Shown here: in pieces, positions 15,439-45,900 of the stretch
Layout: every line of letters begins with the position of its first letter
Numbering within the stretch: the first letter of the stretch is position 1
NCBI GenBank assembly: GCA_000004985.1
Contig: GG738869.1
Strand: one strand, 5' to 3'
Length of the DNA stretch: 64,000 nucleotides
Source of the DNA: Naegleria gruberi
Lineage: Eukaryota
Made by a program: the position numbers and the translations under genes
The notes under the pieces: model-generated
Told to the model about the DNA's origin: nothing
The model's database searches: none
Seen by the model: only the letters and a program-made list of their open reading frames with translations

Positions 15439-17445
15439 ATGTCTCAACAACCTTCAAGCTGCCTTTTATTGTCTCTACCCGACGAATGTCTATCACTGGT
15501 TTTTTCCAACCTCTCCATACAAGAACTATTCTTCCGAGCCAGATCTACCTGTAGAAATTTTCATGAAATTATTGTGGGTATCGCTTCACCATTTCAACAA
15601 AAGGAAAACAAGAATTGCTTGATAAGAAATCAAAAGTTGAAAATTTTGTGTTTAAATAATAATCCAATCAGATTAAAATCACTGTGGGAGTGTATTAGAA
15701 AGGGTTATTTTGAAGAATCAGTAACTAAATTCAGTATTACTGCTAGAAGAACTGAATTGTTGGAAACTTTGCTTGACAAGAATGATTTCTTTGTAAAATA
15801 CTTTTCAAATTTGGAATGTTTAAAATTTGGATCAAAGAATTTGTGCAGTGAACATATTTCTGAATTGTTTAATCCTGATAATTCCAAACATTTAAGAAAG
15901 TTAACAATATTGAAGTTGGCAAATAATAATTTGGATATCAAAACAGCAAGGAGCATAGCCAAGTGTGAAAACTTAACTAATTTGACATCACTAGATTTGA
16001 GCACTAATGTTATGGAAGGTGACTGTATAGAATTACTAACGAGTCCATATTTAGAAAAGTTAACAAATCTCAATTTGAGTGGTAATTATATTACAACAAT
16101 ATTATGGAAAGAAAAATTCAAATTCAAAAACTTGGAAAAGATATCAATTGAAAATCCATTTGAGTTCGTTTTCAATAATCAATCTGAAACATATTTATTT
16201 AGCAAGCTCACATATCTAGATGCTTCTGACTCAATTGAGGAGGAAAAAAGATTCTCTGCTATGAAAAAGTTTGATTCCATACCAACAATCACATATTTGA
16301 ATTTAAATTATGTAGAATTAACACAAGAATCCATACTATCCCTTATTGCAGATAGTAGATGCCTTTCCAAGTTGGAAAATTTAGAATTAATCGGTTGCTC
16401 ACTTACTGGAACTGGATTTGCAATCTTGACTAGAAGCAGATATTTATCAAATTTGAAAAATCTGGTTGCTGAAAGTAATGACATTGATTTTGAAGGTTTT
16501 GTACACTTTGGAACAGATTCGTTTACTTTGAAGAATCTAATTACTCTAGATTTAATTTCAAATGACTTTAGCGTGAAATCTTATGAATATTTATTAAGAG
16601 AACCCTCTTTAACAAAATTGGAGAAACTTTATTGTGATAATGTTGATGAGGTTGAGGCAAAATACATTGCAGAACACCAAGAAAATATTACAGGAATAAC
16701 TGATTTGGTATTTACTGGCTATTCTGAAATGGAAGATGACAGTATGAAATATTTGGCCATGTTAAAATTACTCAAACTCAAGAAATTGAAATGCACTGGC
16801 ACAGGAGGCACCTTTTCAGGATTGATTTACTTTTTAGAAAATTGCACTTGTGAAAATTTGGAAACATTAGAATTTGGTAGGGTAAAATTTACAAATATTG
16901 ACGAGCAAATGAAGGCCATCTCATCACTACTCTCCAATAAGCACTTCTCCAAGTTGGAAACCCTAACTTTGGATGGACTTGCTGATGAACCTTTGAGAAT
17001 GTTATTGGATAATATGGACGACGATAAGTTATTGAGCAAACTTTCAACTTTATCAATTTCAGAAATTAATGACGATGCATTCAGAGTTCTAACAAGTCAT
17101 CCAAATAGTTCCAAATTGAAAATGCTTGCTCTTATGGAAGGAGAGCTTTCAGATGAGTCAATTGAACATTTTGTTAATAGTCCACACTTTCATGAGCTTA
17201 ATTATTTGGATTTGATTGGAACTGAAATATCACGTGAATCGAGTAAGCGTATTGCTCACAGTACCAACATTCCAAATCTCGAATATTTATTTGGTTCTTT
17301 TATTTTGGCTGATTTCGAACAGGAAACTAATTTACCGAAACTTTCTCATCTCTATTTAACAGAAAATGGTTTGGAAACCCCAAAAGATGATGATGATGAT
17401 GGATTGTATGAAGCAACAGAAGTGGAAGATCAACTTTCAAATTAA
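15439..17445 (+). CDS. F-box / leucine-rich-repeat (RNI-like) protein.
   Basis: N-terminal F-box (LSLPDECLSLVFSNLSIQELFFRARSTCRNFHEII). It is followed by many LxxLxLxxN-type LRRs (LTNLTSLDLSTN, LTNLNLSGNYIT, LENLELIGCSLTG...) and an acidic tail (DDDDDGLYEATEVED). Confidence 0.7.
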   Translation: MSQQPSSCLLLSLPDECLSLVFSNLSIQELFFRARSTCRNFHEIIVGIASPFQQKENKNCLIRNQKLKILCLNNNPIRLKSLWECIRKGYFEESVTKFSITARRTELLETLLDKNDFFVKYFSNLECLKFGSKNLCSEHISELFNPDNSKHLRKLTILKLANNNLDIKTARSIAKCENLTNLTSLDLSTNVMEGDCIELLTSPYLEKLTNLNLSGNYITTILWKEKFKFKNLEKISIENPFEFVFNNQSETYLFSKLTYLDASDSIEEEKRFSAMKKFDSIPTITYLNLNYVELTQESILSLIADSRCLSKLENLELIGCSLTGTGFAILTRSRYLSNLKNLVAESNDIDFEGFVHFGTDSFTLKNLITLDLISNDFSVKSYEYLLREPSLTKLEKLYCDNVDEVEAKYIAEHQENITGITDLVFTGYSEMEDDSMKYLAMLKLLKLKKLKCTGTGGTFSGLIYFLENCTCENLETLEFGRVKFTNIDEQMKAISSLLSNKHFSKLETLTLDGLADEPLRMLLDNMDDDKLLSKLSTLSISEINDDAFRVLTSHPNSSKLKMLALMEGELSDESIEHFVNSPHFHELNYLDLIGTEISRESSKRIAHSTNIPNLEYLFGSFILADFEQETNLPKLSHLYLTENGLETPKDDDDDGLYEATEVEDQLSN

Positions 17446-17516: not shown

Positions 17517-20035
17517 ATGTCCTACTTACTATCAGTGCTTCTGCCAGATGTCATCCTTTCAATCGTGCTCATTCTTTTCTTTATTGTCGTTTCTAGACAA
17601 TTGACACTCTTTAATAATTACAAACAAAGAATATTGAGAGAGAAGGTTAAAACTTCAAGAGAATACAATCGGAAGAAAATTATGGCAGATACAGAAGAGG
17701 GAAATGGTCAGGAGGAACGTAATTCGAATACAGACGAAACTCAGACAAATCAAGAAGAAGTCGGGACGAATTGCTTGTGGATCCACAAATTGTTTCTACC
17801 ATGTCTTATTGGGAGAAATCAATGAGAGAGGGTGTTGCGTCATCATTTGTGTTTTTCATGGAATTAATTAGAAATTTATATGTTTCAATAATTAGTTTAG
17901 TTTCGTATGGATATAGAAGAAGGAATTTATACAAAATTTATAGAAAGTTCGGAAGAGAAAAGGCTATTTACTTGAGTTTCCAGCTTCATTTATTGTGGAT
18001 TAGTCTATTATGCTCAATTATTGTCTGTGCTGTCTTGTTACCTTTACATTTGACAGGTAGAGAAATTGACAACTCGGAATATGCATATAATATCGTTGCT
18101 CTTACCTCTGCTCTCAGAGCAGCAACTTCACCAGTCAAGATGTTTGCTCACGTAGCCATTCTAATTGTGTTTATAATTATTACATTAGTTTTCATGGTTT
18201 CTTTCAATAGAAATAGGTTTAGTTCTTCACTTCTTTTGGTAGGTGAAGATTCTAATAGCACAGAACAGGATTCTACCCTTTCCAATGACGAAACTGTTAT
18301 CATTTCTCCATTTACAATAGTTTTAGATGGAATTCCAAAAGAATCATCTCAGAAAAGTGTCGAACAATTCATTGAAGAAAATTTTAATGGTGGATTGAGT
18401 GCGAATGATGAAAATAGTAAGATTGTAAAGATATTTCATGTGCCAAATCTTGTGGATCGGTTAAATCTCAAAGAATTGGAAGAACATTTGGAAAGAGAAT
18501 TGGAACATTTCATGCATTTAAAAGGAAAATCAAATTATGATGTTGCCAAACGTCACATAGTTCATGAAATGAGACCATTGTACTCGGATGATTTGAGATT
18601 CAAATTGTGTGGATGTACTACATATAGTACCAATTTGAAAACTATGACTACTGATGAGGCAGTAGAATATTTAAGATTGGAATATTCAGATTGTAAAAGA
18701 ATGGTGGAACAATGGGATGGAGAATATACTTCAATGTTTCTTACAGATGAAAGACAATCACAAGATGAGGAATATTTATCTCAAATCAAACAAGTGAAAT
18801 CATCTGGAAAGTGCTTTATAGTTTTTAAAAAGGTTGAACATGTTGATGAAGCAATTGAAAAGAATCGAATAATGTTCAATGATTCTTCAGTTTCCTTGAT
18901 GAAACTATTAATTGAACCGCAAGATATCAATTGGCACTTTATTGGCGGTACCTCCAAATACTTTTCCTTGAGAAACTTTTGCATGATTAGTTTAATATTC
19001 TTTGTATTGTTGGTATTTTCTGGACCACCATCCATTTTACAATCACTTCAAGCATTGGGATCTCCTATTCTTAAAGCTGTCAAACTTGGTGACTTGTCTG
19101 ATTTACTATTTCACTACTGTCCTTCTCTGTTGATTTTCATTTTCAGCAAATTGTTTCCAATATTTTTCAAAAAGATTACTCAAACAGAGAAGCACCTTTC
19201 CAAATCATTTTACAGTAGGATATTATTAGTGAGATTGTTTACATTTTCCATTTTGAATATTCTCATTTTACCAGGATTGTGGATTATCTCAGCTTTCCTC
19301 TTTTTAGTTTTCGCAAATGATGGCAAACATTTGGATATCATGTTCTTGCCAAAAACAATTGAAACAATGATTTCTACATTGCTACAATTCATGGTTATGG
19401 AGAATGTTTACGAATTGGTCAGATTTGGCAAAACACTTTATTATATTTGGAAGACAACATTTAATTGTTACAGAAAAGCAAGAACTCCCACTCAAATTTT
19501 AAAACTAATTAAGGAAACTAAGGAATTCGATATGGAAGAGAATGTTTCAAACATGTTGGGTATATTATGTATGTCGATGGTCTATTCATTCTGTTGTCCA
19601 CTTGTAATGCCATTGGCATTCCTTTGCATCTTTATCAAGCACTGGTTTGATAGATGTGTTATTGAAGAGGAATTCACTCATCACTCCAATATCAATGAGA
19701 AGGATGACAAACTCGATTTTACCAGTAGTTTGAGATTATCCAAGCTATTGATCGTTCTTGTTCTTACAACATTGAGCATTGTTGGAATGATTGTAATTTT
19801 AGGATTTTCTTACTTGTTTTTTACTAGTCTAATGTATATTATACATTTGGGAGTTTGTGGAGCTTGCTTAGCTATTCTTCTATTAATTACCTTGGCGTTG
19901 ATTTTCAAACAAAACTCAAGTGTCAGATCAAATAAGAAAGATATTGCAGAACAGCAAGAACGAATGCTTGATCCAAATTCATTCTCACAACAAGTTCAAG
20001 ATATTCTCAATGTGGAAAATATTCTCAAGTTTTGA
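17517..20035 (+). CDS. OSCA/CSC1/TMEM63-like (DUF221) stress-gated cation channel. The 5' structure is unresolved: the exon-1 ORF 17517..~17700 and the main ORF from ~17745/17801 are in different frames.
   Basis: The N-terminal ORF encodes a TM0 helix plus an RQLTLFNNYKQRILREKV segment like the OSCA N-terminus. The main ORF has AIYLSFQLHLLWISLLCSIIVCAVLLPLH and the cytosolic block CFIVFKKVEHVDEAIEKNRI...LIEPQDINWHFIGGTSKYFSLRN, which matches AFVTF...AP.P.DI.W.NL. A multi-TM C-terminal half follows. No canonical intron of more than 38 nt could be found to join the two frames. Confidence 0.55.
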
Positions 20036-23046: not shown

Positions 23047-24533
23047 TTATTGAGATTGTTTTACAGCTCTTACAGTTTGAGCTAATCTTTTCATCTCACT
23101 TAATTGATTAGAACATGATTTGATAATACTATTCTGTCTATCAAAAATTCCTCTCAAAGTCATATCACGAGCTGGTGGCAATGGTTGTGAATATTCGGTA
23201 ACAATTGTTGGTTGAGGCTCAAATGTATTGAAATGTTGAGAAAAGTAGGATGGTTCAGTGGTGATGGTTGGTTTATCATCCAATTCAATATCATTTGATT
23301 GTGGAATTGATTGTGACTCAAATGAAATTAAATCAACATTTGATTGGGCTTCACTTGGAGCTTGTGAAATGGCATCATCATTATCAATGACATCAAATTC
23401 TTCATCTTCAAAATTTACATCACCTTCCAATTTTCTCTTACTCAACATTAATTCATATTCACCCAAAAGTTTACTGTAAATTCCACCAATAACCATGGAA
23501 GGCAAAGCAACAATCACAATACCAGACAAGATGGTCATGATAGCAATAATTCTTCCCAAAACTAAGAGTTTGGTTCTTAATAAATGTTAAATTAATGAAT
23601 TAACATACCTGTAACTGGAGCCATGTCACCATAACCAACTGTAGCAATGGTAACAACGCTGTACCACATACAAATTAAAATATTTGAAAATGGTGAAGGT
23701 GTACCATCTGGTCTTAACCATTGTCCAGATTTGAGATCATATTTTCCACGTTCAGCATAATAAACAAGAGTACTACAAATAAGAGCACCCATAAATATTA
23801 AAACAGAGATTGATAAGAGCATATCCATAGATCTTCTCAATGAAACAATAAGCAATTGAAATTTAGCAGAATATCTTGTCAATTTGATAAGTTTTAAAAG
23901 TTTTAAAACTCTGAAAATTGTCAAAACTTGAAGATTGACATTTAACCAAGTACTGGCATCTGCCATATAAATTATTAAATCAAAGTAAAATGGAACGAAA
24001 CTAGCAATATCAATTAAATTGGCAGGAGCTTTAACAAAATGTCTAAAATCACCCCAAGTATTTACATAAGCAGCCATTCTTGCAAAATATTCAAGCATGA
24101 AACAAACTGATAAAAATCCAGTAATAAGCAGCCACATGATTTCGAATGGGAAAAAGAATGGAAAAGATCTCAAAATTAAACATAGGGTTTGAATAACAGT
24201 CATGAGTGACGTTATCACTGTAATGATCATGGCTACATATGATGATCTAGGATGTTCCAATAATAAATATAATTTTTGTTTCCATGTTCTTTCCTTATTA
24301 CTTTGTGGAATACTCTTGATAATATTAATAGTTCTTCTACTTCGGAATAGTCTTGAATTTTCAATTACTTCCAATGTTTTCTTTTTTTCCTTTTCCTCTA
24401 ACTTGAGTTTTGCTTTGATTTCTTTTAAAGTGGTTGGTGGTTGTTGTTCGATAGCTTCCTTTTCATGCTGTGATGATGAGGAAGGCGATGCGGGTGTTGC
24501 TGTTGTTGTAGGTGTTGGCGTTGTTGTACTCAT
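23047..24533 (-). CDS. Six-TM voltage-gated-type K+ channel without a T1 domain. Two exons: 23609..24533 and 23047..23561.
   Basis: S4 with basic residues every third position (LKLLKLIKLTRYSAKFQLLIVSLRRS). K+ selectivity filter TIATVGYGDM. A 47-nt GTATGT..AG intron (23562..23608) lies between APVTG and the S6 helix (VLGRIIAIMTILSGIVIVALPSMVIGGIY). Confidence 0.75.
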
Positions 24534-29037: not shown

Positions 29038-30228
29038 TTATTTAAAAACAAGAACAGTTTCATAGGAAATATCTGGAATTCTATTGGTAAGAAGTAATTG
29101 TCCAGTAGTTGAGTTGATTGTGAGGTCCATGTATGTTCCTTGGAATTTGTGTTGATTTTTGGCCTTTCCAAGATTTGGAATAGTGTTACCATTAAACATT
29201 GTTTCTGATCCATCTGGATGTACAATAACAATTGCATTACTTTCACAAGTGTTCATATTTCTATAACCTGCATAGATACAATTACTATTCTTGTCAAACT
29301 TCAATGATTCAATAGCACCAAGCTTTGGCAATTGTTGAGTACCAACAACTTTTCCATTTGGCTTCAAGATGGTCAACTCACTTGTGTATGAATTGGAAAG
29401 GCAAATATTACCATCCTTATTCAAACAGATGCAACTAACTTTCTGAGCTACACAATAGCCACTCATATCTTGACCAACATTGGCAAGAACTTTACCATTT
29501 GAACTATCAACTACACATACAGAAGGTTGTTGAATTCCAGAATAGAGAGAATCTCTTGCACAGTAAATTTTACCATTCTCATCAATGGTGCAATCTTTCA
29601 TATCTGAATCCAATGTTACTGCCCATTTTCTTTGTCTTCCATCGATGGATATCTTGTGAAGCTTGGTTTTCTGAAGAACAATAATACCATCACCTTTTGG
29701 ATCGACTTCCAAAGCATCGATTGCAAAGTCCAATTCTTTCAATTCGAAATTGTAAAGGAAATCCAAGGTTGTGGCATTGAACACAAAAATTCTAATAATG
29801 TGTCTATTCTCAGCTACAAAGATGAGGTTATTTTGTCTGTCGTAGGCAATTTTCTGTGGTTGTTGCATGGTAAGATTGAAATCTTCACGATCACCCAAAC
29901 ATTCAACAAAATCAAAATCTCCAGAGAAGTCAATTGGGTCTTTTGAGAGATGTTCAGTAGTTTTAACAAACTTTCTCTTGGTCATGGTTGAAGAGCTACT
30001 TGAGGTTGAAGTGCTTGATTGACTGGTCTCGTAGTCATCTTTATAAGATGGTTTTTCATCTCTTCCACGATTGTTACTTCTGACATTTGGAAGCAAATTC
30101 TTGATACGGCTTGCAGAACGAAGAATATTCTCAACATTGTTTAGAATTGAAGACATTTTGTTTTTTAGTGTTTTGATTATCATAGTTTGACCATTTTCTC
30201 TTTTTAAAATGTTTGATCTTAATGTCAT
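29038..30228 (-). CDS. NHL-repeat beta-propeller protein with a basic, Ser-rich N-terminal region.
   Basis: NHL-type blades (LIFVAENRHIIRIFVFNATTLDFLYNF; KIYCARDSLYSGIQQPSVCVVD; GKVVGTQQLPKLGAIESLKFDKNSNCIYAG). The N-terminal ~90 aa are low-complexity (SSTSTSSSSS). Confidence 0.55.
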   Translation of the reverse strand: MTLRSNILKRENGQTMIIKTLKNKMSSILNNVENILRSASRIKNLLPNVRSNNRGRDEKPSYKDDYETSQSSTSTSSSSSTMTKRKFVKTTEHLSKDPIDFSGDFDFVECLGDREDFNLTMQQPQKIAYDRQNNLIFVAENRHIIRIFVFNATTLDFLYNFELKELDFAIDALEVDPKGDGIIVLQKTKLHKISIDGRQRKWAVTLDSDMKDCTIDENGKIYCARDSLYSGIQQPSVCVVDSSNGKVLANVGQDMSGYCVAQKVSCICLNKDGNICLSNSYTSELTILKPNGKVVGTQQLPKLGAIESLKFDKNSNCIYAGYRNMNTCESNAIVIVHPDGSETMFNGNTIPNLGKAKNQHKFQGTYMDLTINSTTGQLLLTNRIPDISYETVLVFK

Positions 30229-30419: not shown

Positions 30420-31835
30420 TTACACAAATGAAATATCAGAAAACTTGTTGTTCAAGCTGGAATACAACTTGTTGATGAATTTTTCATCTTTTCTCTTCAA
30501 ATTATTAGAAATGAAAGGTTGGGAGTTATTGGAAACAATTCTTTGCATGCACGATTGTACTTCTTCTTCATTGGTCGTATTACACACGTGATAATCAAAC
30601 TTGGAGTCTTTACAATATTGTTGGAATAGGTTTTCATACTCGTTAATGGTTGAATTGAGTACACTTCTTTCCAAATTAAGATTGGACATGGATTTCAATT
30701 CTTCTTTCATAGAATCACAAACTTGTCTTTGATAACGAGCTTCTACTGAGAGTTTTTCTTGGAGAATATCTGGTTTTGAAAAGATTACAACCTTTCTGCT
30801 ATTCTTCAATTGTTTCTTGGTCAATAATTCTTTAAAGGTCTTTAAGCTTTCGTCCATTCTATTGGTTTTGGAATCTTCTATGGATTGCTGATTGAATTCA
30901 GAGAGGGAAACAAAGAGTAACAAGACATTGGTTCCTTCCAAATCGAGTGAATTCCATCTTCTTCTTTCCATCTTCTTTCCTCCAGCTGTAACCAAATTCA
31001 ATTCATGACTAGTGGAAAATCTTCTAATGGTTTCTCTTTGTGTCGAATTCGTGCTATTATATAATTGATATTTACATTTTTGAAGGCAGAGTTTACCATT
31101 CTTGAATACTTGATTCATATTTTCTGTGAAATGCTTTGCATCCTTATTCTTTTCATAGTAAGATTTCAGGCAAGTTGACCAAATTCTTTCAAAATCTGTG
31201 ATAATTATTTGAATTTCATCATCTTTCGGGGAGCTAACATCTTCTGTTGATTCCTCCCCACCAAAGAGAATCTTATTTGTCATCTCTGAACATTCTGGCC
31301 ATCTCTCATGTCCATCTTGTCTGTAACTCTTTGCTATCTGACTCATATGTCTACACAAACACTCAAAGTGTTCAGAAGTCGACACAGCCTTTGAATTGCT
31401 CTGATATTGCTCTGTCAATGTATTTACAAACGTACTCTTTCCACTATCTGAACCCCCCAAACACAACACATTCATTCTCTTGTTATTCATCTGCTGTTCA
31501 GTAATAGCACTGGCAGCAGCAGTAGTAGCATCAACACTCTCAATATTTACACAGTTCAAATTATCTTCATCATAACCATCACGTTCCTTTTTCTTGTTAA
31601 CATCGGATTCAACATTCACTTCATTAAGAATGCAACAATCACAATCAGAATCCTTATCTTCTTTAGCGGTGATTGCTGTTGAGAGGGACTGAGAAACACA
31701 CTCTATTAAACTCATTTGTTTTGTTTTATATATTGAATTGTATCTCGAGTTCCTAAAGTATTTAAATGAATTGCAGAATTGGTCTCTTGCTTTTTTGTTG
31801 TCCACCTTATTTGGAATTTTTAAAAAGATGCGCAT
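30420..31835 (-). CDS. Divergent heterotrimeric G-protein alpha-subunit-like protein with a long N-terminal extension.
   Basis: Motifs line up with G-alpha. The P-loop is LCLGGSDSGKSTFVNTL, compared with LLLGAGESGKST. The segment RWNSLDLEGTNVLLLFVSLSEF corresponds to DVGGQRSERKKWIHCF..IIFCVALSDYD. VVIFSKPDILQEKL corresponds to the NKKD box ILFLNKKDLFEEKI. VCNTTNEEEVQSCMQ corresponds to TCATDTxNV. The switch II residue is Thr, not Gln, in DLEGT. About 110 aa of acidic, Cys-containing N-terminal sequence precede the GTPase domain. There is no N-terminal MG. Confidence 0.55.
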   Translation of the reverse strand: MRIFLKIPNKVDNKKARDQFCNSFKYFRNSRYNSIYKTKQMSLIECVSQSLSTAITAKEDKDSDCDCCILNEVNVESDVNKKKERDGYDEDNLNCVNIESVDATTAAASAITEQQMNNKRMNVLCLGGSDSGKSTFVNTLTEQYQSNSKAVSTSEHFECLCRHMSQIAKSYRQDGHERWPECSEMTNKILFGGEESTEDVSSPKDDEIQIIITDFERIWSTCLKSYYEKNKDAKHFTENMNQVFKNGKLCLQKCKYQLYNSTNSTQRETIRRFSTSHELNLVTAGGKKMERRRWNSLDLEGTNVLLLFVSLSEFNQQSIEDSKTNRMDESLKTFKELLTKKQLKNSRKVVIFSKPDILQEKLSVEARYQRQVCDSMKEELKSMSNLNLERSVLNSTINEYENLFQQYCKDSKFDYHVCNTTNEEEVQSCMQRIVSNNSQPFISNNLKRKDEKFINKLYSSLNNKFSDISFV

Positions 31836-32794: not shown

Positions 32795-33709
32795 ATGAGA
32801 AAACTCTTGAACGCACAAACAATCAAATCGGGCAGCAAATTGTTGAGAAATAATTCATCATCATCATCAGCCTGTTTATATCATGAAAGTAAACAAGTTT
32901 TAAATAACAGCAGCGCTGCTGAACAAAATTCAACAACACATTTTGGATTTAAAACTGTGCTTGAATCGGAAAAGGAAAAATTAGTTGGAGGTGTTTTCCA
33001 CAATGTTGCTAGTCGTTATGATATTATGAATGATTTAATGAGCGGATCATTGCATCGTGTTTGGAAGGATCAACTTATTGAATATCATTATAAACCACAA
33101 GCTGGTGGAACTTATTTAGATGTTGCTGGTGGTACAGGTGATGTTGGTTTTAGAATTGTAGAAGCTTTGAGAAGAAATTCTCCTCCTGGAGTTAAGAGTA
33201 AAGTTATCATTAGTGATATCAATCCATCAATGTTGCAAGTCGGAAAGGATAATGCTGCTAGATTGAAATTGTCTGAATCTTCTCCTAATGTTGAGATTGA
33301 TTGGTTGGAAGCTAATGCTGAAGATTTTACTTCAAAGATTGAAAGTAATTCTGTGGACGGATATACCATTTGTTTTGGTATTAGAAATTGTACTCATATT
33401 GATAGAGTTTTGAAGGAAGCTTATCGTGTATTGAAGCCAGGTGGCTGTTTCTGTTGTTTGGAATTTAGTGAAGTTAATGATGTCATTGTTAAACAAATTT
33501 ATGATTGGTACAGTTTTAATGTCATTCCAAAGATGGGTGAATTGGTTGCAAATGATGCTGATTCATACCAATATCTTGTTGAAAGTATTAGAAAATTCCC
33601 TAATCAAACTAAATTTAAGGGAATGATTGAAGAAGCTGGCTTTAAGAATGCCAGATATACCAACTTGACATTTGGTGTTGTTGCTATTCACTCTGGTATT
33701 AAGCTCTAA
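32795..33709 (+). CDS. COQ5: 2-methoxy-6-polyprenyl-1,4-benzoquinol methylase COQ5 (UbiE family), mitochondrial.
   Basis: HFGFKTVLESEKEKLVGGVFHNVASRYDIMNDLMSGSLHRVWKD; SAM motif LDVAGGTGDVGFRI; ICFGIRNCTHIDRVLKEAYRVLKPGG; YQYLVESIRKFP; GVVAIHSGIKL. Nearly collinear with human COQ5. The N-terminus is presequence-like (MRKLLNAQTIKSGSKLLRNNSSSSS). Confidence 0.88.
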   Translation: MRKLLNAQTIKSGSKLLRNNSSSSSACLYHESKQVLNNSSAAEQNSTTHFGFKTVLESEKEKLVGGVFHNVASRYDIMNDLMSGSLHRVWKDQLIEYHYKPQAGGTYLDVAGGTGDVGFRIVEALRRNSPPGVKSKVIISDINPSMLQVGKDNAARLKLSESSPNVEIDWLEANAEDFTSKIESNSVDGYTICFGIRNCTHIDRVLKEAYRVLKPGGCFCCLEFSEVNDVIVKQIYDWYSFNVIPKMGELVANDADSYQYLVESIRKFPNQTKFKGMIEEAGFKNARYTNLTFGVVAIHSGIKL

Positions 33710-33800: not shown

Positions 33801-36305
33801 TTAATTCCCAGTTCTGCCAAGTGAGGCTGTTTTAGTTTGAGTTTTATCACTTGATAAACTGAGTGATGTTGCTGTATAGAAAAAGGAAGTTCTAATCAAT
33901 CTACCCAGTAAACTCTTTCTTCCATTGATCAAGGCAAAAACAATTGAGACACTTAATAGGGTGACACCTAAGGCAAGTGGAATACTTGTCATTAAACCTG
34001 CTGTTACAATGGTCATCTCTGCGTAGGTGATGATGGCCATATTGACAAGGAATACAATGACACTGAATAGGAAAAACAATGTAAATACGCCATCTATCAC
34101 TACCCACTTGTCTTTCTGATTCGATTTCTGAATGTGATTCTTCAATTCAAAACTCAATCCAAAAATGTTGATTGTGCAAATCATTAATAACAATAAAAAA
34201 CCAACACTCATAAATCTGAATAGCAAATCCATTGCAACTATACTAATAGAGATGGAAAAAACAGATGTATGTAAGAAGTAGACAAAGGCCATTGAGTAAA
34301 TGTGCTTTCTGTGTGAAACGAAAATATAATGAATCATTACTCTATTGGAAAGTAAAAAGTATGTCAGCGAAGCAAATGGTGAAAAGATAAGTAAGGGTGA
34401 AAAGATAAAGAATCCATTAGAAAGGAGAACTCTTGCCTCATAAACGCTTGCAAATTCATACTTTCCAAAAGCATAGTAATTTCTTGCGAGTGGTAAAACC
34501 ATTCGAAAGCAATATAAAATCAGTGTTAGTGAGGTGCCAATTATTGTAAACAGAACACCGCCATGTATCAGTATCCTTCTCAATATTTCTCCAATATAGG
34601 TATGCTTTTTAATTCTCAAGAAAAATTCCAAATTCCTCGAATGTTTAAAGTACTTGTCTCTAATTCCAAATTCCTCTCGTACTGTTTTCAAATCCTTAAA
34701 AAGTTGAAAAATTACACTCAGTGGTATGTTAGTGAGTAGTGCACAAGCAATCAAAAGAGGTGCAAAGCAAATTAACCAAAAATAATCATATTCAGGTAGC
34801 TCCAATGATTCATAACCTAATGCATGTAGATTATTATCAATGAATGCAAATTTTAAGAAAATTAGTAGAGTAGATATTAGTATTAATAGGTAGGATAATG
34901 GAAAATATAGTGATCTAGTCAATTGATACATTCTATCCATTGACACTCTTCGATCTTCCAGAAACTCATTAAATGATAAATATTGATTCCTCACTTTTGT
35001 ATAAATATTGAACCAGTTGAACCCCTTCTTCTTTTTTTGTGATACAATTGAAATAGTTGATGGAACTCTGCTGATCAAACTCTTGTTCATATTCTCAGAT
35101 TCCACAATATTAACCGATGAGGATGCAGCAGTACTGTTCATTTCCTTCTCTTTTGAAAATTCATCAAATTCCAACTGTTCCTCATCACTAATAAACTCGT
35201 ATGCTATAGCTCTCAAAAATAGGAAATCCACACTATCCTTCCTCACTCCCAATTTATCCCAAACCTGAGATGGAGGTTTAATAGGGTAAGGCAACTTGGA
35301 TATATAACTTTCCTCAGCAGCTCTAAAATTCAAAAATGTCTGATTTACAAAATCCTTAAATCCCAACACGTATGATTTATACTTTTTCAGTAAAATTCCA
35401 TTCAAAACAAATGAGAGTAAATTCTTTTTCACTCTCAACTCCTTCTGTTCATCAGTGAGGAGTAAATAATCTGCCATCTGTTCAGCACTATTTCCATTAG
35501 CAGCAGTAGTAGTAGCATCAGTTGAATTATTTTCTGATTCATTTGTTGCATCAATGTTAACCATGGTAGAACTCGAGCCAACACTAGGTGCTCCAGTGGT
35601 GGCAACAGTAGTAGTAGTACCAGCAACAGTGGCAGCACTCGTAGTAGTAGTGGTCGATTGATTCTTTTCATTTTCTTTTGCTTTTAAAACTTCCAATTCT
35701 TCACTTTCCTCCAAAATTTCATAAAGTATTGAAATAGGTCCAAACATGAGCTCTTCCTCAATGATTTCCTTCCACCTCCTACAAACCAATCGAACAGAGA
35801 AGAACAATGTCTCATAATCAACATATAAGAAAATGTTTGAGCATACTTCAGGTGGTAGATAGGACTTGGCTGGTGTGTTGGAATTTAAATTCAATTTCTG
35901 TTGAATCCAATTAATGATAGAGATGGGCGAAAAGTGGTTGATATTATTGCTAGGGATCGGAATAACAACTGAGTGATGATCAGCATCAGTGTAGTGTTGT
36001 TGATACTGTTGCTGGTAATGCTCTTGTTGTACTCTCATGTTGGATGAGTATGTAACAACAGCAGTTCCATCCTCTTCATCCTCATCCTCTATTATTGTCG
36101 TTGTTGTCGTTGTATTATTATTAATATTATTATTTATATTGTGATGATAGTGAATTGATTCTTCTTCTTCCGCAAGTGATGATGGAGGTAGGGTTGTTAT
36201 AGCAATTCCAATTTCTTCCAATTGAATTGTTTCCTCCTGTTGTGACAATGCAGATGATTGTTGCTGCGAATTTTCCTCTTCCTCTATGGTCAATTCTTCA
36301 ATCAT
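33801..36305 (-). CDS. F-box protein with a C-terminal polytopic membrane domain and poly-N / acidic low-complexity regions.
   Basis: F-box: LPPEVCSNIFLYVDYETLFFSVRLVCRRWKEIIEEE. The C-terminal ~400 aa hold 8-10 hydrophobic helices. Poly-N runs (NNINNNINNN) and T/A-rich stretches are present. The start is taken as the Met at 36305 (MIEELTIEEEE). The ORF caller's upstream extension would overlap the previous gene. Confidence 0.5.
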   Translation of the reverse strand: MIEELTIEEEENSQQQSSALSQQEETIQLEEIGIAITTLPPSSLAEEEESIHYHHNINNNINNNTTTTTTIIEDEDEEDGTAVVTYSSNMRVQQEHYQQQYQQHYTDADHHSVVIPIPSNNINHFSPISIINWIQQKLNLNSNTPAKSYLPPEVCSNIFLYVDYETLFFSVRLVCRRWKEIIEEELMFGPISILYEILEESEELEVLKAKENEKNQSTTTTTSAATVAGTTTTVATTGAPSVGSSSTMVNIDATNESENNSTDATTTAANGNSAEQMADYLLLTDEQKELRVKKNLLSFVLNGILLKKYKSYVLGFKDFVNQTFLNFRAAEESYISKLPYPIKPPSQVWDKLGVRKDSVDFLFLRAIAYEFISDEEQLEFDEFSKEKEMNSTAASSSVNIVESENMNKSLISRVPSTISIVSQKKKKGFNWFNIYTKVRNQYLSFNEFLEDRRVSMDRMYQLTRSLYFPLSYLLILISTLLIFLKFAFIDNNLHALGYESLELPEYDYFWLICFAPLLIACALLTNIPLSVIFQLFKDLKTVREEFGIRDKYFKHSRNLEFFLRIKKHTYIGEILRRILIHGGVLFTIIGTSLTLILYCFRMVLPLARNYYAFGKYEFASVYEARVLLSNGFFIFSPLLIFSPFASLTYFLLSNRVMIHYIFVSHRKHIYSMAFVYFLHTSVFSISISIVAMDLLFRFMSVGFLLLLMICTINIFGLSFELKNHIQKSNQKDKWVVIDGVFTLFFLFSVIVFLVNMAIITYAEMTIVTAGLMTSIPLALGVTLLSVSIVFALINGRKSLLGRLIRTSFFYTATSLSLSSDKTQTKTASLGRTGN

Positions 36306-36360
36306 TTTTTCATTAATAGTTGAAATTAGGAAACGAATGTCAAATGAATGTACAATTGAT

Positions 36361-37860
36361 TTATTTCTTCTGTTGTTGTTGTTGAGGAGGTTGTTGTTGT
36401 TGTTGAGGTTGTTGTTGACCTGGTTGGAGGAGTTGGAAATAAGGAGGACCAGCAAATTGGGTTGGATTACCTGTAAATCTTACATTTGGATAACCTGATG
36501 GTGTTGGATTACCTCTTGTCATGTTGGCAACATTCATTTGAGGTCTGAAAACCATTGGAGAAATTGGGAAGGAGCCAGGAGTTGCTCCAGCTCTTAACAT
36601 TTGTTGTTGCATGTTAAATAATTGATTTTGTAAATTAGCATTAGGTGATGCTTGTGGTCTACCATTACTTCCAGGAGTAGGACTTGCAGTTGTTCCCATA
36701 TTGTTTACAGACATGGCTGGAGGACGAGATTGAATATTCTTTGGTGTAGTGGTTGCAGATTGAGGTGTTTGCCTAGCACGAGCAGCAGCTGCTGTTGGAG
36801 TTTGAGGTGTTATTGGAGGTGTAATACCTTGAGGAGGAATGAATGAGGGATTGGCTGTTGTCGAAGGTGATGGTGTTTTAACTGTTGGAGATGGAGCTGT
36901 AACACTTGGTGATTTTTTGACAGGTTGTCTACTTGTGACTGGCGTGGTCTTCTTTTGGGTAGCTCTTTTGGATTCTTGACCAGGTGTTTCAACTTCTTTT
37001 TTAACTGGAATAGATGGATTATGAACTGTTGAGATTTTGATCTTTCCTGATGGAGGAGGTTGAGGCATTTGTGTTGGTGGATTATTGTTATTGGCAGTAA
37101 GAACAGGTAAATTAACTTTGAATGGTTCTTCCTTTCGTTCAGGTTTCTTTGAAACGTGCATAATGGCAAAACTCTTCTTTTCAGCGTCTTTGAGATGAGC
37201 AATATCTGTTTTGTCATCATTTTGAAGTCTAGTTCCCCTTTGCATTGAAAATAACAGAGTATTATTCCTCATTTTTGCTTGCTTTCTTATAGATACATCA
37301 AATCTTTGTTGGTCAGCAGTCAATAACTCCTTACATTCTCCAAGTTTTGAATAAGGACGTTGTTGAGTATTTGCCTTCTTATTACCAGCGCTACCATTCG
37401 GCAATGGAGTATTACTTTGTGTAAATTTCCAATTCTCTTTAATAAATGCAGAACATGATGAAATGATATCATCATGATTAGATCGTTTTTCTATTTGTTC
37501 GGAAGGATTTAATAATGAATATGCAAGTTGATTATTACTAGTTATTTGAGGGAGTTCTTTTGTCTCCTTTGTTTTTTGAAGATCATTTGTATACACACTC
37601 AAAATATTTGTTATTCTAACAAGATTATCTACATTTTCATCCTTCGGATATAATAAAGCCATCCTAAAATTTGAATCATCCTTCTTGATCAATGACTGTA
37701 TAGTCTCCAAATTCTTATTTAAAACACAATACTTGTTCAGTAATGTTTCCCAAGAACATAATTTAATGTCAAACTCGCAAATTTTATCCAATGTATCCTT
37801 TGCAGCTCTTTCTATTTGTTCGTAGGTTCTTTGCGATTCATGGAAAGCTGTTGGAGGCAT
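36361..37860 (-). CDS. Hypothetical protein with an N-terminal helical domain and a long Pro/Thr/Ser/Gln-rich tail ending in poly-Q.
   Basis: 499-aa ORF. The N-terminal ~150 aa have normal complexity (MPPTAFHESQRTYEQIERAAKDTLDKICEFD...). The remainder is PTPS-rich with a terminal QQQQQPPQQQQQKK encoded by (CAA/TTG)n. A Mediator-Med8-like architecture is conceivable but not supported by specific motifs. Confidence 0.45.
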   Translation of the reverse strand: MPPTAFHESQRTYEQIERAAKDTLDKICEFDIKLCSWETLLNKYCVLNKNLETIQSLIKKDDSNFRMALLYPKDENVDNLVRITNILSVYTNDLQKTKETKELPQITSNNQLAYSLLNPSEQIEKRSNHDDIISSCSAFIKENWKFTQSNTPLPNGSAGNKKANTQQRPYSKLGECKELLTADQQRFDVSIRKQAKMRNNTLLFSMQRGTRLQNDDKTDIAHLKDAEKKSFAIMHVSKKPERKEEPFKVNLPVLTANNNNPPTQMPQPPPSGKIKISTVHNPSIPVKKEVETPGQESKRATQKKTTPVTSRQPVKKSPSVTAPSPTVKTPSPSTTANPSFIPPQGITPPITPQTPTAAAARARQTPQSATTTPKNIQSRPPAMSVNNMGTTASPTPGSNGRPQASPNANLQNQLFNMQQQMLRAGATPGSFPISPMVFRPQMNVANMTRGNPTPSGYPNVRFTGNPTQFAGPPYFQLLQPGQQQPQQQQQPPQQQQQKK

Positions 37861-39954: not shown

Positions 39955-42900
39955 TTAATATCTAGGAGAGGTAAAATTAGCTGGTCTTGGTGAGTTGTTA
40001 TTACTGTAAGAAAGAGAATAATTGGATGGAGGGCGAAGAATGTTTTGGAATTTTGTAACTTCAATAGTTTGCAATTCCATTTGTTTCTTGGCATCCTTTC
40101 TTCTCTTCTTTCTACTAAGCAATCTTGATAGAATACAGAACAGTAAAGTTATAGAGATGATTGAAATTAAAATGACTGCTCCAATAATTGAACCTGCAAT
40201 AATGATATAGGTAATACTATAATCAATATTAGATGCCATTGGTACGCTTGTTGTTGGGTTAACACTTGTTGCAGGTGTTGGTGTTGTATCTTGACTACTA
40301 ACCACCAAATAAATACCAGTACTTTTAACAGAAATTACTATGGTATTTGAGTTTGATGAATTAATTGTGCAATTTGACGCCTTTGAGAATATACCTGAAG
40401 ATGTCTCTACTCTACATTCAAGAACTGTTCCTGTCTTAGCTGATCTAGCTCCGGATACTCTCTCCAAAGATAATTGAGCAATATTAGAACTTGAAATAAT
40501 GTTTTTTGATGTACTATCAACTAGAATCTTGAAATCTAATGCCTTAGTAGCAAGTAAGAGTGAGGTATTAGACATCTTGTATGAATTCATTGACAATGTA
40601 ACACTTTCAACTCCTTGTAATTCACTAAGTGAGCTGAATGTTGAACTGAGAGTAAATGGTTGAGCACTTGATTGTGTAACATTTTCTGATAATCCATTAA
40701 GTGTAATTGTACTGACCAGTCTGGCATATCTGTATGAATTAACACCTGTAACTCTAACAGCAGGCATATCAGCAACCAATGTCTTTAGTTTAATGTCTAC
40801 AAGATTGTTGTAAATTGTTTGAATAGTCTTCAAGTCAGAGGAAGAGAAAGAATTTAAAGATCTTGTAGAGACCTTGGCAGAAATATATGTCTTGAAAGTA
40901 TCTACAGATTTAATACTTGAATCAATATCACTGGACTTCATGATAATACTGTCCTTTTCATTAACTTTTGCCATTGATTCTGAGAACTTATTAATACCAT
41001 ACGAAACAGCAGTATCTTCCAAGTAGCTTAGTGAGTTACTAATTGAAGATACAACAGATATTGTTGAAGAAATAGAGGCTGGAGTGACTGATGTAAATGT
41101 TTCCTCTGATTCAATTTGAGTAAAGAATTTTTGAATAAAGGTGGTACCAGATTGTGTCAAAGCTTGCTTTTGTGATTCTGTTTGAGTTGTGGTAGTTTGA
41201 ATCAAAGATAACACTGATGAAACAGTTGAAACTGAAACTGTTCCTTGTTGAATTATTTTGAGAGACTCAATAGTGGAAGCCACATCTTGAGGTTTTGTAA
41301 CAGTTACCTCTGAAATGGATTCTGATGTTGCACCATAGTAATCAGAAACTAATGCCTTTACTTGCCAAATGCCAACAGGCATGTAGGTGGAAATGCTATT
41401 CTTTTCTGAAAGAGCAGATAAAACCATCCAGTCATCACTGCTACCCTTCTTCCTATACATAAACTTATAGCCTAGAGGTAAGTGTACATCAGTCCATCCA
41501 CTTGCACAATTAAGTTCAAAAAGATCTACCAATGTTACACCTGTTGAAGGAAGGATTGCAAAGGTTCCAGCAGTTGGAGGAGAATTTGTTGTAAATGTAA
41601 GAGAAGTTGATCCAGACTTGGAGCCATCTGTTATCTTCAAATTGACAGTGTAAGTTTTTCCTGCAGAAAGTAATGATTTGGAAATGACAAGGTACTTGTT
41701 GGAGGTGGATGGTAACACAAGATTTGAACTTGACCATTGATAAGTTCTGGAAGATGAAAGGGTATCCTTTGAAGAGGCTTCTAAGGTGAGATCACTAGTT
41801 GGATCAATGACAGAAGTAGAGACATCACTTGGAGTTACAATGACAACACGTAAAACAGTTGATTTGGCCACATTAAGTACCTTAACTTTTAGTGAAGCAG
41901 CCATAGTTCTTGTTCCCTTGCTGAATTTAGCAGTAAAGTAATAATTACCAGGTTGCATAGCACGATTAAATGTAATACTGGAAGCAAATTTGTAACTTGC
42001 AGAACTGAAACCATCACACGATCCAGAGGTGTCCACTTCATAACAAGTGAGAGCCAAAGAACCTGTAGTTCCAGTTGAATCACTTGGATCTTGTAAATAA
42101 ACAATAAAGTTAACATCATCTTCATATGATTGAGACATATCCCCAATATTGAAAGAGACCTTAAGAGGTGTTGCCTTAGCAGTCACTTTGAATGAAATAG
42201 ATACACCAGCAGCATAAAGAGTAAAATAATAGTCTCCTTCTTTTGTAAGTTTAGTGAAACTATCACTGAATACCAAAAATTGTCCATCTTGCTTAATTAC
42301 AACGTTATCAGCTGAAGTTGTAGTATTCAACTTATAGACATAGGTCACAGTTTGGGATGCATCGTAGCAAACAGGGAATGTAATATCTGGTGTGATAATA
42401 GCTGTACTTCCAATCATGAAACTAGTTTCAACACCTTCTTTAATTGTAAGTTGAGGTAAAGCCCTTTCCGTTACAGTTAAGGAAACAATAGCTGTTGAAT
42501 AGTTTCCAGAGAATGAGCTTGTTACCTTCACTTGTGCTTTGTAAGTACCCACAATTAATGTATCAGGTGAGAATGTAACACTAGATGTTATTGATTTGTT
42601 GATGAGATTATTTAAAGTTGAGCGTGAACTTTCGCTTGGGGCAGAAATTGCATACCAAGAATAAGTTAACTTTCTACCATCTGATGAAGTAGATGCAGAT
42701 GCATTAAATGTTACAGTTCCACATCCTATTCCAATAGAGCTCTTATCAGATTTTACACTAGCAACAGGTGGAACAATTATATAATCTTTTTGGGTAACAT
42801 TGACACTAACAATGCTTGCTGATCCTGGATATGTGCGAAGCAAGATTGTGTCTCCAATTACTATTGTTGGAGAAGATCCCAAGTTAATTTGAAGAGTACT

Positions 42901-45900
42901 CTTTGTGCCATTCAAAATACAAGTTGGGTTGCTTCCAAGCATAGAAATATCAATAATCACATTACCACAAGCAACTTGTTGATTGAAAGTTGAGAAAATT
43001 GTACCATAAATAATATGTCCCTTAGAATTAAATCCAAAGGAATTGGAGTCAATACCATAATTGCAATCATTTCCATACCATCCCTCCTCACAAGAGTTAC
43101 AGCTGTCACCGATTGTGTGAGGATTACAAGAGCAAGTTCCCTCATCATTACAAGTACCCCTATTACTACATGTTTTGCTTGCAAGACATTCTATATTACA
43201 GTCAGCACCAACAAATCCTTCCTTACAACGGTCACAATTGGATCCTGTCCAGTTACCGAAACATTCACACTCAGCCTCAATATTACAAGCACCGTGTGAG
43301 TTACATGTTACGTTATCATAACAAACACTGTGATTACAATGGGTACCAGCGAATTCTGGAAGACACCTTTCACAATATTGTTGAGGATCATAATTTCCTT
43401 TACATGTACATTCTTCAAAATTAACACATTTTCCTCTTCCACCACAAACACTTGGTCTTGAAGAATTAACATTATTGCAAGAAGTAAACTCGCAATTCAA
43501 ACCAGAATAACCATTAGTACAATTACATTCTGGCATTAAGCTCAAACCAACATCACAAGTACCACGAGAAGAACAAACAGCCTTATTAGTGGACAATAAC
43601 CCATTACAAATAGGAATATCACAATTTGAGCCATTGAAACCTGCTTTACATCTCGAGCATGAAACTCCTTCAAAGTTACCATCACAAACACAAACATGAC
43701 CAACACAAGATCCATGATGGGTGCAACCTCCCTCCTCTTCAGATTTACCATTACAAGTAATAACAGAACAATCCTCTCCTTTGAAACCACTATTACATCT
43801 ACAAGAATTAGCAGCTATACAAACTCCCTGTCCAGAGCATGACTCAGTTTGATTATAACTTCCAAAGCAAATGGGGAAGTCGCAATTATCTCCATAATAT
43901 CCATCGAAACAAGAACAATTATTCTCTGCAATACACAACCCATTAGATGAACAAACATGACGACTTGTGTCAGCATAACCATAACAGTGAGTAGCATTGA
44001 CATTATCTATTTCTGTCTCATTGAAACTTGTGGAATTTTTCAAATCTGTAGAGTTCACAACACTGGTAGCATTATCTGTTGTTGTAGTGTTTGTAAGTGT
44101 ACTGTTATCAGTGTTTGTATTATTCAAAGTGTCTGTACTATTCAAATTTTCTGTACTGTTTAAAGTGTCTGTAGAATTTTGGAAGATTTGAGTAGTATTA
44201 TCAGTAACTGTAGAATTTGAGAGAGTTGAATTGGTTGTTGACGTGTTTGAAGATTCTTGTGGAACAACTTCAAAAAGGCAATCTTCTGTTGGAAGAGTTT
44301 CCCAATATTCAGCCACAAAGGAAGAAAGTAAGGTAAATGGTTGAGAAGAACCTGTGATACCACTATTCAACACTTGAACACTCAGCATGATATTGCTTTC
44401 AGGATCTTGAACATTTTGAATTGATTGCACTGTTACTCTCTCTACATTATTCTTTGTATCAATAGAGGAGCCACCATTTCCGTATAATACACGTGAAGAT
44501 GAGTATTCTGAGGTTTCACTATTCAAATTGTATACATTTACAATCAAATCCAAGTTATTGATAATGTTTGGCAATACTGAAGTACTTGAAGAATAGTCAT
44601 ACCAAGTAAGGGTTGATCTGAATGTTGATGATTCAGTTACGTTCTTCTTCAATCTATAGCACGATCTTAATGTTTGGTTTGACTTGGTAAATGATTCTTG
44701 AGAAATAGATAGTGTTACATTTCTTCCTTTTTCATCACTAAAAAGACTTCCGAGTTGAATTTTTCCAAATCCTTCATAAAAGTTTGGTGTTCCAAAGGCT
44801 TCACTAATACTGAATCTTTGGAATTCATCGTCTGAATAAGCAACACTACCATTCAGAGGAACTGAGCTATGAATCATTGCAGCCTTAATTAAATGTCCAC
44901 TTGGAGCTGAAATTCCAAGCTTCTTGATAAAATATTCTCTCAATAATAGAGCACCTCCAGCCTTTTCCACACAAAGAGTATCATATTTATCAAATTTGCA
45001 TTAATTCAATATCATTTCAACAGCAAACAATATTGTAATTAACAATGTAATTAATAATAATAATAATAGATAATAATGATAATAACGTACGGATATCGGT
45101 GTTGCCATTGATGTGCCACTTTTTGTTATAAGGGCAGCATTGTTTGAAATGGATGGGGAACCAGCACCACATTGAGATGTTGAAATAGAACCGTCTGAGC
45201 GAGCTGAAACAATCTTGAATCCAGGTGCAACAACTATGGGACCAGTAATATTTATCCAAAATCAAACCCAAAAAAAACTTACAATCTGGTTTAATTCTTC
45301 CTCCAATAGCTGGACCTCTGGAAGAAAATGCAGCAAGGTTATTTTCATTATAAATATTTGTATATTGCAAATAAGAGCTAACATAACTATTTGCTGATGG
45401 TTCGTAGGTGGCACTGTCCACAAAACCAGCGTTTGAATTTCCATGAGCTCCAACAGAAATACCATTTTTACAAGTGGAAGGGGCTGTTAAATGTAAACAT
45501 TAAACTACTAGTTCAGTTGAATACTTACTACCAAGGTTTCCAAATCTGGATAATTGCCCATCATTTCCTTGGGCAATCAAAACTGTTGCATCTTGATGGC
45601 TCCAAATAAATTGATCAAACTTTTGGGCATAATCATCATAGGTATTACAAACATCACAACAAGTGTCAACTCCAAACAGGGTTTTACAATCATCGTTTGT
45701 AACAGAATCACCAGCACTAAAAGGAGCTTTATCTGCAGTTAGTGTGCATCCAGTACAGTCATAAGAGCAATCCACATATCCACCAATAGAACATCCCCAA
45801 CTGTTCGAAAATACTTTTGGTGTTGCGCTGCTTGTGTATGGAGTGCTTAATAGGTCAGTAATATCATTAGGGAAATATAATCCACTTCCATCTGCTGGTG

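Follow-up and report, generated by a model that had tools for sequence, protein, structure and literature searches.

The locus examined here raises the question of whether a G-alpha protein can hold on to its guanine nucleotide after losing the residues that hydrolyse it. It lies in a 64,000-nucleotide stretch of contig GG738869.1 from Naegleria gruberi (GenBank assembly GCA_000004985.1), hereafter the window, to which all coordinates refer. A preliminary description made from the sequence had placed a G-alpha-like GTPase at 30420..31835. An uninterrupted minus-strand frame of 471 codons is confirmed there, and it contains an intact single-exon gene, NAEGRDRAFT_49275, for a highly divergent G-alpha paralogue. 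Alignment to canonical G-alphas indicates that the three determinants of GTP hydrolysis are substituted and that the residues expected to bind the nucleotide are retained. The features on which this reading depends are listed below, with residues of the Naegleria protein numbered on the annotated product and canonical positions numbered on G-alpha-i1.

30420..31835, minus strand: maximal open reading frame (ORF), 471 codons plus stop, uninterrupted, matching the interval of the preliminary description
30420..31715, minus strand: annotated coding sequence (CDS) of NAEGRDRAFT_49275, 431 residues, single exon, starting at Met41 of the ORF
31533..31715, minus strand: acidic N-terminal extension, annotated residues 1-61, modelled as disordered, with a CDCC cysteine cluster
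31431..31457, minus strand: G1 or P-loop, GGSDSGKST, with the GxxxxGK[ST] pattern intact
31059..31430, minus strand: all-helical domain (annotated residues 96-219) inserted after G1 and before switch I, very divergent in sequence
31035..31061, minus strand: switch I, YNSTNSTQR, its register ambiguous owing to the repeated NST
30954..30989, minus strand: switch II or G3, TAGGKKMERRRW, placed by alignments, a profile model and a structural model between beta-3 and alpha-2
30930..30944, minus strand: DLEGT, residues 258-262, in the stretch that joins alpha-2 to beta-4, its counterpart in G-alpha-i1 being (C)FEGVT 214-219, with one residue inserted
30768..30779, minus strand: G4, SKPD in place of NKxD, its Lys and Asp invariant or nearly so in alignments of the subfamily described below
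30573..30584, minus strand: G5, CNTT in place of TCAT, inside the subfamily signature H-[IV]-[IVC]-N-x-T
30423..30533, minus strand: subfamily-specific C-terminal extension, SNNSQPFISNNLKRKDEKFINKLYSSLNNKFSDISFV, in place of the distal alpha-5 helix and the receptor-contact tail

The chance of a stop-free frame of 471 codons is ~2e-16 at 33.7% GC, and ~1e-15 to 1e-16 for lengths of 431-471 codons; GC content in the window is 30-37%. The ORF product is 100% identical over 431 residues to an N. gruberi protein that carries the database name "predicted protein" (EFC44299.1, XP_002677043.1, UniProt D2VG73), on a scaffold of 747,259 bp, and that database model begins at the second in-frame Met (31715). 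Because the 40 codons upstream of this Met are basic and of low complexity (2 acidic and 11 basic residues) and its upstream context is A-rich (AAAACAAAACAA ATG, with TCAACTTATTCA ATG at Met1 of the ORF), we take 30420..31715 as the likely CDS and ORF residues 1-40 as probably 5' untranslated region. No second G-alpha copy was found within the window, and a literature search with the accessions of the gene returned no paper that mentions it.

Assignment of the protein to the G-alpha family, as first proposed, is borne out by sequence and by modelled fold. Pfam PF00503 was matched at E=3.2e-42, with 145.3 bits against a gathering score of 48.8 and coverage of profile positions 9-330 of 333, and a profile hidden Markov model (HMM) of 85 canonical G-alphas scored 136 bits. 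In a PDB sequence search, the best matches listed (60/60) were all G-alpha chains, the first being Entamoeba EhG-alpha-1 (4FID, E=9.5e-14). An AlphaFold2 (AF2) model built from a 31-sequence alignment gave a mean predicted local distance difference test (pLDDT) score of 76 and a predicted template modelling (pTM) score of 0.74, with the Ras-like core above 90. Foldseek comparison of the model with the PDB retrieved structures of G-alpha q, i, t, 12 and 13 with E ~1e-15 and template modelling (TM) scores of 0.7-0.8, normalised to target length, in alignments that span ~330-360 columns of whole G-alpha chains. Since whole chains are aligned over ~335-360 columns, both the Ras-like and the helical domain are present, and the model accordingly places helices at 93-219 between beta-1 and beta-2. 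The beta-4/alpha-3 block SLSEFNQ..ED..TNRMDESL is conserved. Overall identity to canonical G-alphas is only 14-23%.

Placement of switch II determines how the catalytic centre is read. The preliminary description had taken DLEGT as this motif, with Thr in place of the catalytic Gln and one Gly fewer than in DVGGQ. We located the segment by phmmer against three PDB G-alphas, by MAFFT alignments of 7 and of 163 sequences, and by the profile HMM of canonical G-alphas, whose posterior over the segment was maximal ('*'). The residues V-T-A-G-G-K-K-M-E-R-R-R-W (242-254) pair with F-D-V-G-G-Q-R-S-E-R-K-K-W of G-alpha-i1, while DLEGT falls past alpha-2, opposite (C)FEGVT, in every alignment method. 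Secondary structure in the AF2 model agrees, with beta-3 at 237-243 ending at Thr243, alpha-2 at 248-256 and beta-4 at 264-270. DLEGT is not switch II, to which it bears a superficial D-x-x-G-x likeness, and a literal DLEGT switch with a Rap-like Thr is refuted by the alignments and the modelled secondary structure.

Inspection of the corrected alignment reveals that the catalytic Gln is indeed absent, although its replacement is Lys247 (Lys287 in the numbering of the 471-residue ORF) and not Thr. Careful alignment thus finds Lys, and no Gln, at the catalytic position. The analogy to Thr61 of Rap falls because the substitution is Gln to Lys inside T-A-G-G-K. The Asp of DxxG, Asp200, is replaced by Thr243. 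Both Gly202 and Gly203 are kept, so that the supposed loss of a Gly is not borne out, and the helix core E-R-R-R-W is retained together with the Trp211 equivalent.

The remaining nucleotide-binding boxes lie where they had first been placed, and alignments agree on the P-loop, SKPD and CNTT positions. In the P-loop, Gly40, Gly45, Lys46, Ser47 and Thr48 are kept, the position of Gly42 (Gly12 of Ras) is occupied by Ser89, and that of Glu43 by Asp. Switch I can be read in two registers. The profile HMM and the large MAFFT alignment set Tyr219 at the Arg178 finger and Thr222 at Thr181, whereas phmmer against 4FID and the subfamily alignment set Ser221 at Arg178 and Ser224 at Thr181. Neither register has Arg or Lys at the finger position, so the Arg finger, for which a check had been proposed, is absent; a hydroxyl residue occupies the position of Thr181, a Mg2+ ligand, in both. 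G4 and G5 carry Asn269 to Ser and Ala326 to Thr, respectively, and CNTT keeps the small or hydroxyl character of the motif.

To place these substitutions among relatives, we drew on an exhaustive HMMER search of 1.84 billion representative sequences, which returned 1,899 relatives at E <=0.001. The best identity of NAEGRDRAFT_49275 to any of them was <=34%; no close relatives were found in 90% clusters or JGI metagenomes, and no orthologue in N. lovaniensis, Willaertia or metagenomes. Within this set, a subfamily is marked by [TSV]KPD at G4, by Y-H-I-V-N-x-T at the TCAT region, by (R)PEL..I....V[IV]NSI, conserved in the stretch from G4 to G5, and by a C-terminal extension of 35-50 residues, FISPCL ... 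L-x-D-[IV]-x-[IL]. NAEGRDRAFT_49275 carries SKPD, HVCNTT and PFISNNL ... FSDISFV at these sites, and on its sequence it is one member of a heterolobosean subfamily and no isolated oddity. At least nine N. gruberi gene models belong to it (NAEGRDRAFT_49275, 59438, 66226, 73162, 52122, 67917, 50404, 52181 and 65329/65332), a lower bound, as word-index searches gave 14 matches for the full subfamily profile and 2 for the C-terminal profile. N. lovaniensis contributes two further members and Willaertia magna one; the remainder come from ENA, JGI and Logan metagenome contigs. The subfamily is so far known only in Heterolobosea and metagenomes, with the Willaertia sequence probably a member. We found no published name for the group with the TKPD, HIVNTT and FISPCL-tail motifs.

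A neighbour-joining (NJ) tree of 135 sequences with 100 bootstraps supports this grouping. The nearest clade of NAEGRDRAFT_49275 consists wholly of subfamily members in 99/100 bootstraps, and the subfamily minus the Willaertia sequence is monophyletic in 63/100. Another member, NAEGRDRAFT_67917 (P0059), lies on the same 747,259-bp scaffold outside the window; it is 559 residues long, with Asn-rich low-complexity insertions and a switch II of L-D-L-G-G-R-G. Replacement of Asp200 by Thr is restricted to NAEGRDRAFT_49275 and two metagenome sequences, P0012 and P0080, all three of which read V-T-A-G-G-K. Orthology with these two was considered and set aside at an NJ support of 7/100, the motif being perhaps convergent or the tree too poorly resolved, and the combination of Asp to Thr with Gln to Lys may have arisen twice. 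P0012 and P0080 are ENA metagenome contigs of 1,572 and 787 bp that pair together in 99/100 bootstraps; they have a G-N-T-S-S-G-K-T P-loop and a Lys at the Arg-finger position, and P0080 begins MGVKQSK.

A position survey of 162 relatives, comprising 21 subfamily members and 141 others, separates catalytic from binding residues. Gln204 is kept in 1/21 subfamily members and in 126/141 others, Arg178 in 4/21 and 116/141, and Gly42 in 1/16 and 96/110 of the sequences that cover the site. Replacement of the catalytic Gln, which the preliminary description had proposed to look for among paralogues, is therefore the rule in the subfamily, where the position is otherwise K, R, S, T, V, Y, M, D or P. 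Residues of the binding site behave differently. Lys270 is kept in 19/20 subfamily members and 140 of the 141 other hits, Asp272 in 20/20 and 139, Gly203 in 18/21 and 138, and Trp211 in 18/20 and 141. Among sequences covering the P-loop, Lys46 is kept in 13/17 subfamily members and Ser/Thr47 in 16/17, with both kept in 108/108 of the others. In the 31-sequence alignment, the sole invariant columns are Lys314 and Asp316, the Lys and Asp of NKxD.

Compared with canonical G-alphas, the protein is thus alike in its Ras-like domain with helical insert, the P-loop GxxxxGKS, the Gly-Gly and E-R-x-x-W of switch II, the Lys and Asp of NKxD, and the SLSEY/F..ED..NRM.ES block. The nucleotide-binding residues retained include the switch I hydroxyl. 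It is unlike them at all three hydrolysis determinants (Gly42 to Ser, Arg178 to Tyr/Ser, Gln204 to Lys), at the Mg2+-linked Asp200 (to Thr), at Asn269 (to Ser) and at TCAT (to CNTT), and further in having no N-terminal MG signal, an acidic disordered extension of ~47 residues, and a short alpha-5 helix followed by a 37-residue tail.

Ras Q61K and G12S, G-alpha-s R201C/H/S and Q227L, and G-alpha-i1 R178C and Q204L are all GTPase-deficient. The wild-type Naegleria protein is substituted at all three of the sites hit in such oncogenic Ras and G-alpha mutants, with the same types of residue (Ser at G12/G42, Lys at Q61/Q204), a comparison that draws on established knowledge; unlike the mutants, the Naegleria states are natural and lineage-wide. 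The position of G42 in G-alpha-i1, equivalent to G12 of Ras, is normally Gly, and G42V is GTPase-deficient (PMC9283941). A variant P-loop in N. fowleri G-alpha-1 confers slow GTPase kinetics (PMC9283941).

Because binding residues are constrained and catalytic residues are free to vary across the subfamily, we infer a protein that binds nucleotide and does not hydrolyse it. Selection would have maintained guanine-nucleotide binding and not hydrolysis, and the protein would bind GTP or GDP with little or no intrinsic GTPase activity. It would then persist in a long-lived GTP-bound state, or be controlled by exchange, abundance or partners. Escape from regulators of G protein signalling (RGS) is probable, given Ser or Gln in place of Gly183 and Asn or Thr at the site of Thr182. 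The protein would probably also stand outside receptor-driven cycling and act instead as a signalling or adaptor subunit, meeting its partners through the conserved tail at its C-terminus and perhaps also through the acidic N-terminus. We give about even chances to this reading, in which GTP binding is kept with little or no intrinsic hydrolysis and the protein serves as a long-lived GTP-bound subunit not cycled by receptors. The general suggestion of a GTPase-deficient or otherwise non-canonical G-alpha, or a pseudo-GTPase, is strengthened by the loss of the Gln, the Arg finger, Gly42 and the lipid anchor, although the residue-level basis first given for it was wrong.

Several observations weigh against a GTP-bound, non-hydrolysing subunit. 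The switch I register is ambiguous in the NSTNST repeat, where pLDDT in the AF2 model is 56-63. Among the 1.84 billion representatives, the 90% clusters and the JGI metagenomes, no orthologue above 34% identity was found that would attest to conservation of this particular gene over time, and the T-A-G-G-K shared with P0012 and P0080 is unsupported by the NJ tree at the 7/100 given above. The changes at Asp200, Asn269 and Ala326 could so weaken binding of Mg2+ or nucleotide that the protein, like plant XLG2, would be empty. Conceivably, too, catalysis could involve a Lys or Arg at the site of the Gln.

There are rival accounts of the protein. In one, which we consider unlikely, it is a nucleotide-independent pseudo-GTPase or decoy that sequesters G-beta-gamma, RGS proteins or other partners, as proposed for XLG2, whose G-alpha-like domain retains G-beta-gamma and RGS binding with nucleotide binding weakened 100-1000-fold. 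The active site of the Naegleria protein deviates at no fewer than four positions, including Asp200 to Thr, Asn269 to Ser and Ala326 to Thr; changes of the A326S type are reported to lower nucleotide affinity, and some subfamily members (P0037, P0074, P0011 and P0015) have lost the P-loop Lys. XLG2, however, carries G42E and K46A and has its DVGG replaced, whereas the Naegleria protein, save for Gly42 and the Asp, keeps these elements: Gly40, Gly45, Lys46, Ser47, the switch II glycines and the guanine-specificity Lys and Asp are all in place. The binding residues are, moreover, the most conserved columns of the subfamily, which is hard to square with dispensable binding. In another account, which we regard as distinctly unlikely, the protein is a functional GTPase with non-canonical catalysis, supplied in cis by Lys247/Lys248 or a distant Arg, or in trans by residues of a GTPase-activating protein (GAP), as for RapGAP with Gln-less Rap and for the HAS-GTPases. 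Several GTPase families function without the canonical Gln, and Lys or Arg stands at the Gln204 position in 8/21 subfamily members, and the Arg finger is mostly missing, so that a positive charge has perhaps been relocated. Lys or Arg at the Gln position of Ras and G-alpha is nonetheless strongly GTPase-impairing, the position varies in the subfamily (K, R, S, T, V, Y, M, D, P and Q) in a way that argues against a conserved substitute, and no candidate GAP was identified.

A further account, to which we assign a slim chance, is that NAEGRDRAFT_49275 is a recently dead or unexpressed paralogue, a decaying copy without function in the 44-member G-alpha expansion of N. gruberi. Its low identity to anything else (<=34%), the lack of an orthologue in N. 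lovaniensis, Willaertia or metagenomes, the missing lipidation signal, and a database name of merely "predicted protein" with no mention in the literature would all fit such a copy. A frame open over 431-471 codons in AT-rich DNA, at the probability given above, speaks against decay, as do a Ras-like core modelled at pLDDT >90 and the retention of fold-critical, nucleotide-binding and tail motifs (FIS, D-I-x-F), and on this sequence evidence a pseudogene appears unlikely.

The termini bear on how a GTP-bound, non-hydrolysing subunit might meet its partners. The preliminary description gave the protein an acidic N-terminal extension of ~110 residues. An acidic N-terminus does exist, with 16 acidic and 6 basic residues among annotated residues 1-62 and a pLDDT of 32-39 over the extension, but its length was overstated, as the excess before the P-loop relative to G-alpha-i1 is ~47 residues, or ~87 from the upstream Met, and ORF residues 1-40 are basic. 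The absence of an MG lipidation signal holds for both candidate starts, MSLIEC (annotated) and MRIFLK (upstream Met). An upstream exon supplying an MG start was considered, and no ATGGG was seen in the 465 bases upstream, read by eye. Subfamily members, unlike NAEGRDRAFT_49275, mostly start with the myristoylation-type MG[S/T/Q]K..S.

At the other end, the modelled alpha-5 helix comprises 12 residues (383-394) and is followed by the 37-residue tail, which is unlike canonical G-alpha tails. Across 16 sequences the tail is conserved, and one Ser and one Asp in it never vary. Confidence of the AF2 model is low here in NAEGRDRAFT_49275 (pLDDT 58-60). In a model of the paralogue NAEGRDRAFT_59438 (P0002; pLDDT 83, pTM 0.81), the FISPC segment scores ~84, the short helix that follows ~62, and LTDIQII is disordered. 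These models suggest that the terminal tail is a linear partner-binding motif.

The terminal K-L-[T/S/C]-D-[IV]-x-[IL] found at subfamily C-termini (for example 30423..30533, minus strand, and P0002 327-376) resembles the first beta-strand of BTB/POZ domains. It lies 3-13 residues from the protein ends and is disordered in AF2 models, suggesting strand addition to a partner. A BTB domain encoded past an intron was considered and rejected: the stop codon TAA follows directly after ...DISFV, no credible 5' splice site was found near it, the next ORF, for an NHL-repeat protein, begins ~190 bp downstream, homologues end 3-13 residues after the motif, and a Pfam search with seven isolated tails returned no family matches. 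The stop codon of NAEGRDRAFT_49275 is genuine.

Within the subfamily, NAEGRDRAFT_49275 shares with NAEGRDRAFT_59438 and the other members [TSV]KPD, H-[IV]-x-N-x-T, PEL..I....V[IV]NSI, the FISxxL...LxD[IV]x[IL] tail and the general loss of Gly42, Arg178 and Gln204. It differs from them in its low identity, 28-30% to full-length members such as P0002 and P0007, in having Ser and not Thr at G4, and in a more degenerate tail (FISNNL, FSDISFV).

Two genes adjoin the G-alpha gene with no evident functional link to it. Further genes lie at greater distances on both sides, and of these the channels, the F-box proteins and the aminotransferase are ordinary for a eukaryote.

29038..30228, minus strand: the adjoining NHL-repeat (beta-propeller) protein
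32795..33709, plus strand: the adjoining COQ5/UbiE ubiquinone methyltransferase (PF01209, E=4.5e-81), whose Ser-rich N-terminal stretch could be a mitochondrial presequence
39955..44970, minus strand: ORF of 1,671 residues that combines teneurin-type EGF repeats with a REJ domain (PF02010, E=4e-37), so that a heterolobosean amoeba here shows a receptor architecture of polycystin-1/REJ-like type
17771..20035, plus strand: OSCA/TMEM63-type RSN1_7TM channel
23592..24533, minus strand: fragment of an Ion_trans (voltage-gated-type) channel
15439..17445, plus strand: F-box protein
33801..36455, minus strand: F-box protein
13237..14739, minus strand: class I/II aminotransferase

Several of the distant hits in the relative search, among them P0010 (from a Caenorhabditis species), P0022 and P0013, are 550-670 residues long and carry either a tandem pair of G-alpha domains or switch segments in repeat; these hits have no bearing on the present finding and may be gene-model fusions or assembly artefacts.

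Loss of catalytic residues in a G-alpha has a parallel in plants. Like the extra-large G proteins XLG1-3, and Arabidopsis XLG2 in particular, the Naegleria protein combines a G-alpha-like domain without Arg finger and catalytic Gln with a non-canonical N-terminus, and XLG2 has been proposed to signal without a normal GTPase cycle. The XLGs differ in their long, Cys-rich N-terminal half bearing a nuclear localisation signal, where the Naegleria protein has a short acidic disordered region. Their origin is also independent, since NAEGRDRAFT_49275 groups with heterolobosean sequences. Naegleria itself is already associated with unusual G-alphas. In a review of atypical G-alphas (PMC8584482), N. 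gruberi is said perhaps to have the most G-alphas (44; citing Anantharaman et al. 2011), and catalytic motifs are described as deviating in some G-alphas of Dictyostelium, Naegleria and plants, some of which are without N-terminal membrane-tethering residues. Naegleria G-alphas mix self-activating and exchange-limited subunits (PMC9283941). Catalytically degenerate Naegleria G-alphas are thus known in outline, and NAEGRDRAFT_49275 is an uncharacterised member of them; the subfamily signature, with its tail and its pattern of retained binding and lost hydrolysis, may be new or may already be on record.

For NAEGRDRAFT_49275 itself, the practical value of these results is modest and consists of a corrected annotation, as a G-alpha-like protein with switch II T-A-G-G-K, together with a testable biochemical prediction. 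We put forward only tentatively the wider proposal that the subfamily forms a heterolobosean-specific, XLG-independent class of G-alpha-like proteins. On the sequences compared, its members may have kept nucleotide binding, lost Gly42, Arg178 and Gln204, and exchanged the receptor-contacting C-terminus for a conserved FISPCL...LxD[IV]x[IL] tail that would bind partners, and they might serve as non-hydrolysing GTP-bound adaptors or GTP sensors independent of G protein-coupled receptors. Occurrence of subfamily members in N. fowleri would be of some interest for pathogen signalling. If the proposal is true, a clade that retains the binding machinery without the hydrolysis machinery and the receptor tail would constitute a natural experiment on what a G-alpha does without its GTPase cycle, in parallel to the plant XLGs.

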